NCBI RefSeq assembly: GCF_045037415.1
Contig: NZ_CP173438.1
Reading direction: 5' to 3' (one strand)
Origin: Escherichia coli
Lineage (GTDB): Bacteria > Pseudomonadota > Gammaproteobacteria > Enterobacterales > Enterobacteriaceae
DNA: 64,000 nucleotides
Made by a program: the position numbers and the translations under genes. Positions 31,251 through 31,422 of the stretch are shown here, piece after piece. Positions within the stretch are counted from its first letter, which is position 1, and each line of letters begins with the position of its first letter. Under the pieces are notes generated by a model. The model was not told the DNA's origin, ran no database searches, and worked only from the letters and a program-made list of their open reading frames with translations.

Positions 31251-31422
31251 GAATACTCTCCTGTCTGACATTGACAAAATAATGACAATTGAAAATTCGT
31301 TTTCGTCTGTTTTTGAGCATATTTGTAATTTATGTTCAAAAACACGACACGCATCACTAATTTGATCATTTGTGTCATTTAAATTGACCAAAGACGACAA
31401 AATTAAACAGGACAAGACAAAT
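31251..31422. promoter_or_regulatory. Divergent AT-rich control region between reductase operon and kinase-regulator operon
   Basis: 172-bp intergenic region between divergent starts with several tgt...aca-like half-sites; likely DeoR/CRP operators. Confidence 0.5.

Follow-up and report, generated by a model that had tools for sequence, protein, structure and literature searches.

Shimada et al. reportedly described in 2019 the repression of the yihU-yihV spacer of Escherichia coli K-12 by CsqR (YihW). Like the spacer studied here, this K-12 spacer (squU-squV) lies between divergent reductase and kinase genes, and it measures 167 bp against 172 bp. It is a target of CsqR in both gSELEX and EMSA (PMC8249747; PMC8006165), and is the single strong target of CsqR found by gSELEX (PMC8249747). 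CRP shifts the same DNA in vitro and was described in 2018 as a repressor of K-12 yihV, not a class II activator (PMC5816610). Primer extension in K-12 placed the yihV start at -25/-27 and yihU starts at -62/-63 and at other positions (PMC5816610). No operator sequence for CsqR/YihW is given in PMC12608037, PMC8249747, PMC8006165 or PMC10991401.

A second form of the locus, the "short" yih cassette of the Nissle type, was described by Kaznadzey et al. in 2025 (PMC12608037). It shares its chromosomal site with the K-12 sulfoquinovose cassette and is inverted in orientation (PMC12608037). By means of EMSA, Nissle YihW was found to shift the yihU/V fragment, equivalent to positions 31188-31452 of the DNA analyzed here, into high-molecular-weight complexes (PMC12608037). 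At 30 °C, a 24-32x excess gave complete binding; binding was weaker at 37 °C, and weaker overall than that of CsqR (PMC12608037). K-12 CsqR also bound the Nissle fragment, each regulator binding the spacer of the other, and sulfoquinovose released the YihW-Nissle complexes weakly in vitro (PMC12608037).

We analyzed a 64,000-nucleotide stretch of E. coli DNA (the window) that carries this short cassette (PMC12608037). New here are a specific operator candidate within the spacer, inferred placements of the two promoters and a picture of conservation across genera.

The variant cassette and its divergent spacer

The initial annotation had described an AT-rich 172-bp spacer between a reductase operon and a divergent kinase-regulator operon, and coordinates, base composition and gene calls all agree with it (Table 1). 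In the ORF map, the spacer runs from the start codon of the yihU-like gene (CAT at 31248-31250) to that of the yihV-like gene. Its GC content is 30.8% compared to 50.4% for the window, and 0.96% of 172-bp windows are equally AT-rich. The kinase and regulator genes are followed downstream by typA and glnA. Identities to the K-12 proteins are 72% for YihU, 67% for YihT, 67% for YihV and 72% for CsqR/YihW. Apart from the inverted orientation, the window differs from K-12 in the genes downstream and in the effector domain of the regulator, which pulls the identity of that protein down to 72%. NCBIfam matches the regulator best to its GlpR model, at 256 bits against a cut-off of 331 bits. Regulator residues 29-61, within which the winged-HTH recognition stretch lies, are identical to those of CsqR, and this identity accounts for the cross-binding seen in the published EMSA.

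The published "short yihTUVW cassette" is in fact an eight-gene unit, spanning 24589-33147 of the window. In order, it encodes an epimerase-like protein, two MFS carriers, a Zn-dependent polyol dehydrogenase and the YihT-like and YihU-like proteins, and divergently the YihV-like and YihW-like proteins. PMC12608037 makes no mention of the four extra operon genes (dehydrogenase, two transporters and epimerase). The best solved relatives of the dehydrogenase are RspB, ketose reductase and sorbitol dehydrogenase.

The EMSA-probe DNA and the regulator protein of Nissle 1917 are both identical to those of the window. The degenerate primers yihUV_F_uni and yihUV_R_uni, taken from the supplement of PMC12608037, match exactly at 31188-31208 (+) and 31433-31452 (-), and strain SK1144, a 100% match, shares with Nissle a single RefSeq entry for the regulator, WP_000022287.1. 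Nissle 1917 carries yihL-yihM-yihN between typA and the cassette; this 3.28-kb segment (6912-10187 of the Nissle locus) is absent from the window, where the junction lies at 33162-33203. Outside it, the window and Nissle 1917 are 99.3-99.6% identical. The published YihW EMSA was thus performed with identical DNA and identical protein, and the proposal that the spacer is the operator region for the adjacent DeoR-family regulator is correct and was already published in 2025.

Table 1. Features of the divergent spacer and of the genes around it, in window coordinates; "." marks features assigned to neither strand.
Feature	Position	Strand	Details
Six-gene operon headed by the yihU-like gene	24589-31250	-	Gene calls, profile matches
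Aldose-1-epimerase-like protein	24589-25476	-
MFS transporter, second	25466-26815	-
MFS transporter	26914-28347	-
Zn-dependent polyol-type dehydrogenase	28417-29427	-
yihT-like aldolase (LacD/YihT-type)	29460-30347	-
yihU-like SLA reductase	30372-31250	-	Sulfolactaldehyde 3-reductase; NCBIfam YihU equivalog, 583 bits
Fragment equal to the published EMSA probe	31188-31452	.	265/265 identical to Nissle 1917 NZ_CP007799.1
Divergent intergenic control region, AT-rich	31251-31422	.	172 bp
Shine-Dalgarno of yihU-like gene, GGAG	31258-31261	-	Direct reading; CTCC invariant in v-type alignment
yihU-proximal TGTC/GACA cluster, TGTCTGACATTGACAAAATAATGACA	31262-31287	.	Includes GACA-N7-GACA, 11-bp spacing
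Interrupted palindrome, main operator candidate	31305-31348	.	44 bp; GTC-TG-TTTTTGA-G-CATA / TTTGTAATT / TATG-T-TCAAAAA-CAC-GAC
Inferred yihU -10, TATGCT	31316-31321	-	K-12 alignment; start ~31310-31311, inside left arm of palindrome
Asymmetric palindrome center, TATTTGTAATTT	31320-31331	.	Near-invariant in all spacers compared
Weak CRP-like element (GAC-N5-TCAC), AAACACGACACGCATCACTAAT	31340-31361	.	Best PWM score in spacer, 5.9 bits; center 31350.5
Second conserved block, TCACTAATTTGATCATTTGTGTCAT	31354-31378	.	Nearly invariant in 11 v-type sequences; at expected yihV -35/spacer
Inferred yihV -10, TTAAAT/TAAATT	31379-31385	+	K-12 alignment; predicted start ~31391-31392
Shine-Dalgarno of yihV-like gene, AGGA	31409-31412	+	Direct reading; conserved in v-type alignment
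yihV-like PfkB-family sugar kinase	31423-32319	+	Heads two-gene operon 31423-33147
yihW-like DeoR/GlpR regulator	32359-33147	+	Second gene of kinase operon

Using BLAST against 5426 complete E. coli genomes, we found the spacer as a single copy at 95% identity or more in 1326, and 1105 of these copies are at least 99% identical. The K-12 yihU/yihV allele, with 60-80% identity to the window sequence, is present in 4024 of the 5426, and each genome carries exactly one allele, either variant or K-12 type. Two of the 1326 variant copies lie on records typed as plasmid, not chromosome. A scan of one genome per species gave 76 loci. With the window included, there are 11 variant (v-type) spacers; about 45 loci are of K-12 type and 13 have other arrangements (Yersinia, Serratia, Chimaeribacter and Vibrio). 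The v-type spacers come from Escherichia, Citrobacter, Mixta, Trabulsiella, Phytobacter, Enterobacter and Erwinia, one locus ending just inside the kinase gene.

The gene order of the window cassette is kept in the 10 other v-type loci. None of the eight genes is disrupted or out of order in the seven genera, where protein identities fall as low as 62-83% and the spacer core is almost invariant. Spacer length stays within 152-173 bp throughout the v-type and K-12-type cassettes. No shared extra neighbors that might hint at the substrate were found beside the cassette; its flanks vary between genera, so that the eight-gene unit behaves as an autonomous module. Seven loci in Yersinia and Serratia represent a third cassette type, in which yihO/P/Q, yihU, yihV and yihW occur with the same spacer core and about 3.5 kb of other genes stand in place of yihR/S/T.

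A candidate operator and two inferred promoters

We consider it highly probable that the spacer is the bidirectional promoter-operator of the short yih cassette, at which YihW binds the palindrome at 31305-31348 as its operator and occludes both promoters, any CRP input being weak. A repeat search identified inverted arms at 31308-31321 and 31331-31344 that are complementary at 13 of 14 positions and lie within the longer palindromic span. The gap-free palindrome score was matched by 17 of 1000 dinucleotide shuffles. For the inverted pair of GTC-N2,3-TTTTTG motifs, two copies were observed against 0.025 expected, and none of 3000 shuffles reached two; three more matches occur elsewhere in the 64 kb (five in all). 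None of the 11 v-type sequences has lost the segments GTC/GAC, GTTTTT/AAAAAC and CATA/TATG or shows a compensatory change in them, and the segments are present in the K-12-type and Yersinia/Serratia-type spacers as well. Symmetric arms that are conserved and yet do not covary point to a DNA site bound by protein and not to an RNA structure.

Across genera, the center of the spacer is better conserved than the flanking genes. The 11 v-type spacers share two near-invariant blocks, TTTTCGTCTGTTTTTGAGCATATTTGTAATTTATG (31300-31334) and TCACTAATTTGATCATTTGTGTCATT (31354-31379), with a conserved AAAAAC and GAC between them. The core is retained in 11 v-type, 45 K-12-type and 7 Yersinia/Serratia-type spacers, although the flanking proteins are only 62-90% identical. 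Within it, the TATTTGTAATTT center is identical in 11 of 11 v-type spacers and in nearly all 45 of K-12 type (with changes of one or a few bases in three), and is kept in the Yersinia/Serratia type. We aligned the v-type and K-12-type spacers jointly (n=56). The window and K-12 spacers agree in 79% of columns with no large gaps, and a central block of about 55 bp exceeds the flanking coding sequence in conservation. The shared core reads GTCTGTTTTTGA-N-TATTTGTAATTTAT-N-AAAAA-GAC-GTCACT, followed by a TAAAAT-like -10. The two differ in that ACGACA in the window replaces the K-12 TTGACA/CRP-like left half, and in that the yihU-proximal TGTCA repeats of K-12 lie on the other strand.

Repressors of the GlpR/DeoR family bind tandem or inverted operators cooperatively, and the window spacer likewise has short repeats and forms large cooperative complexes. 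The GlpR half-site is WATGTTCGWT, which the right arm of the palindrome, TATGTTCAAA, resembles. This likeness is confined to Escherichia: only there does the inner right arm read TGTTCA, and the other v-type genera retain just TATG...AAAAAC...GAC. We rejected a GlpR-like half-site in the right arm on these grounds. The distance of about 27 bp between half-site centers and the GTC-N2-3-TTTTTGA arms also differ from a GlpR operator.

The initial annotation had pointed to several tgt...aca-type half-sites, quoting two strings that we located at 31311-31348 and 31369-31392. The first string does hold a real inverted repeat, whereas the TGT/ACA triplets themselves, although present, are not enriched (15 compared to 12.45 in dinucleotide shuffles, P=0.12). 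It is the longer GACA/TGTC box that is in excess, with 9 copies against 2.45 expected (P<0.0005), making the spacer the densest 172-bp window of the 64 kb. Orthologous spacers have a mean of 4.4-4.5 copies against 1.7-1.9 expected; part of the excess is therefore specific to Escherichia. The yihU-proximal cluster is only partly conserved beyond Escherichia and Citrobacter; in K-12-type spacers the corresponding position holds TGTCA-N5-TGTCA on the opposite strand. GTCAC(TTT) is the k-mer that the spacer shares with a second published target of CsqR, the sequence upstream of yihW. That upstream region (32270-32330, the 3' end of the yihV-like gene and the gap) keeps TCATTTTTGTCACTTTATGCGTAAAAT with a GTCAC box and an element resembling a -10, TAAAAT, and has CGTGAGCAAAC at the place of the K-12-type CRP-like left half TGTGATCAAAC.

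The -10 elements and starts in Table 1 are predictions, transferred by alignment from positions mapped in K-12. A search for the sigma-70 consensus TTGACA-16/18-TATAAT at 9 or more of 12 matches returned nothing in 31100-31600; all that can be recognized in the spacer are -10 elements, by their homology to promoters mapped in K-12. The K-12 sequence aligned with the yihV -10 is TAAAAT, which precedes the start mapped at -25 by 7 nt. At 31379-31385 the Escherichia variant has CATTTAAATTG, compared with CATTAAAATG in the other nine v-type loci (CATTAATATG in Mixta), so that the -10 outside Escherichia reads TAAAAT, or TAATAT in Mixta. Judged from the sequence, the change from TAAAAT to TTAAAT/TAAATT may weaken the yihV promoter. 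The -10 and start site inferred for yihU lie within the palindrome, and the second conserved block fills the inferred yihV -35/-10 interval; these placements fit repression by occlusion of both promoters.

From these features we infer that the main YihW operator is the candidate palindrome and that the surrounding boxes also serve YihW. The regulator, encoded two genes downstream, binds the EMSA fragment as large cooperative complexes (PMC12608037). The inverted GTC-N2-3-TTTTTGA arms of the main operator would cover the yihU -10 and start, and auxiliary GACA/TGTC/GTCAC boxes would extend the complex toward both genes and into the yihV -35/-10 interval. Oligomerizing YihW could in this way occlude both promoters. 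Release would require an effector, probably a sulfonated sugar other than free sulfoquinovose, and any CRP input to the variant spacer would be weak.

Published expression data show a silent cassette. Sulfoquinovose induces the K-12 cassette and not the window-type cassette in vivo; in Nissle 1917 both operons stayed silent whether glucose or sulfoquinovose was supplied (PMC12608037). In Supplementary Table S3 of that study, reads for the two glucose and then the two sulfoquinovose replicates were 0, 2 and 4, 1 for Nissle yihT (K-12: 3, 1 and 234, 356), 1, 2 and 1, 5 for yihU (K-12: 1, 2 and 152, 193), 13, 12 and 6, 12 for yihV (K-12: 8, 7 and 134, 176) and 37, 35 and 25, 37 for yihW (K-12: 9, 7 and 47, 71) (PMC12608037). 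The initial annotation had named absence of regulator binding together with constitutive expression of both operons as the outcome that would speak against it; YihW does bind, and the read counts show silence. The same counts rule out constitutive expression owing to weak YihW binding at 37 °C. As YihW-Nissle binds weakly at this temperature, silence in vivo could reflect weak promoters as much as repression.

CRP and other explanations for the conserved spacer

CRP had also been proposed to act on this region, an expectation that our scans do not bear out. No match to TGTGA-N6-TCACA with two or fewer mismatches occurs in the spacer. At three or fewer mismatches the whole window yields 182 matches compared to 221 expected, which is chance level; two three-mismatch matches touch the spacer (31272-31287 and 31422-31437), neither within the strings quoted in the initial annotation, which do not resemble CRP sites. 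We rebuilt a 22-bp PWM from 17 classical sites. Its top match in the window, at 14.7 bits, is in the rhaS-rhaB spacer (2748-2769), and a site in the typA-glnA spacer (35182-35203) scores 9.2 bits; these two, which we take to be the known rhaBAD and glnAp1 CRP sites, were used as positive controls. A perfect CRP core, TGTGATATTTGTCACA, lies at 10232-10247, inside the 5' end of fdhD and about 230 bp upstream of the fdoG start.

The spacer might still be CRP-dependent in addition, with cAMP-CRP on the tgt...aca half-sites co-regulating one or both promoters. The best PWM match in the variant spacer is the homologue of a K-12-type element, AAAATTGACA-N4-TCACTTTT, which scores 8-12 bits and has a variable center as CRP sites do; relative to the yihV start mapped in K-12, it lies at about -40.5. 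A genuine CRP site in the K-12 spacer is thus plausible and agrees with the published EMSA (PMC5816610). In the variant, the element is centered at about -40.5 from the yihV start placed by K-12 homology. However, its left half (CACGA/CAAGA) has 4 mismatches in 10 core positions, so that it reaches 5.9 bits compared to 9.2 and 14.7 bits for the controls, and its conserved GAC and GTCAC also belong to the GACA/TGTC boxes and the end of the palindrome. In K-12, moreover, CRP is reported to repress yihV (PMC5816610). Functional CRP control of the variant spacer is on this evidence rather unlikely, and the K-12 claim should not be transferred to it without testing.

It is less probable again that a second protein (Nac or another LysR-type regulator, an IHF-like protein or a nucleoid factor) sits on the TATTTGTAATTT center and is the main cause of its conservation. 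Despite its asymmetry, this center hardly varies among about 60 spacers of three cassette types, and the region fits ATA-N9-TAT at 31319-31333, the loose Nac/LysR pattern. That pattern has very little information content, however, and the CATA/TATG ends are equally well explained as the inner arms of the palindrome. By eye, the ArcA, IHF, H-NS and NagC consensus sequences gave no convincing match to the spacer. Ntr-Nac activation was noted during growth on sulfoquinovose (PMC12608037), but gSELEX returned the spacer as the single strong target of CsqR and nothing ties another factor to it.

A further explanation is that the region is a decaying remnant, in which a truncated, functionless cassette has its spacer kept by recent descent. 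The lack of sulfoquinovose induction and the weaker binding of YihW than of CsqR (PMC12608037) would suit such decay, as would TTAAAT in Escherichia compared to TAAAAT of other genera at the yihV -10. We nevertheless regard it as quite improbable, given eight genes intact and in the same order in seven genera around an almost invariant spacer core, retention of the residues of the sulfonate pockets, and the spread of the variant through the E. coli collection (1326 of 5426 genomes, with 99% identity or more in 1105).

We rejected, as very improbable indeed, the reading of the palindrome as an RNA hairpin in a 5' leader (attenuation or stability) and not a DNA operator: although it folds at -19.2 kcal/mol (z -5.5) on the plus strand and -14.2 kcal/mol (z -3.5) on the minus strand, the 11 v-type sequences show compensatory changes at 0 of 25 consensus pairs and an unfavorable covariation term (+0.59), inner right-arm positions vary without compensation, neither strand has a U-run downstream and a terminator scan found none, and the homologous K-12 start sites fall inside or downstream of the hairpin. 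Rfam returned no credible match in the region, its one sub-threshold match, to a eukaryotic snoRNA, being spurious in AT-rich DNA.

Substrate and inducer of the cassette

If the spacer is, as we favor, a YihW-controlled switch, its inducer bears on what the cassette consumes. We compared the encoded proteins with the sulfonate-pocket residues of the solved K-12 and Salmonella enzymes (PMC8006165). Conserved in the variant are Lys27, Asn109 and Arg138 of the kinase, Ala26, Lys193, Ser226/227 and Arg253 of the aldolase, and Arg123, Asn174 and Ser178 of the reductase. Since these pockets are conserved, the variant cassette probably still converts a sulfofructose-like ketose, the products predicted from sequence being DHAP and DHPS. 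In the regulator, the CsqR ligand residues predicted by docking (PMC10991401) are conserved as well, and neighboring positions are changed (S151A, S154G, Y216F and H217T).

The variant cassette lacks YihS, YihQ, YihO and YihP, and has instead the Zn-dependent dehydrogenase, the epimerase-like protein and two different MFS carriers. This eight-gene composition suggests a route into sulfofructose that bypasses the sulfoquinovose isomerase. We hypothesize a pathway that retains the sulfonate pockets of the sulfofructose kinase, SFP aldolase and SLA reductase, and in which YihS/Q/R/O/P and OmpL have given way to two MFS carriers, an epimerase-like protein and the dehydrogenase/ketose reductase. 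It is possible, and we put it forward tentatively, that the spacer is the switch of an intact, horizontally mobile eight-gene sulfosugar pathway distinct from sulfo-EMP, and that YihW responds to an effector other than sulfoquinovose, such as a sulfo-alditol or another 6-sulfo sugar.

Taken alone, the control region contributes little that is new; a 2025 study on identical DNA had already established what it does and that YihW binds it. Its practical value lies in the operator candidate at 31305-31348 and in the promoter elements, which offer targets for mutation. The analysis also draws attention to the inducer of the cassette, which about a quarter of complete E. coli genomes carry, that of Nissle 1917 included. 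If the pathway is indeed a distinct one, its effector would reveal a new sulfonated nutrient of Nissle/ExPEC-type E. coli.
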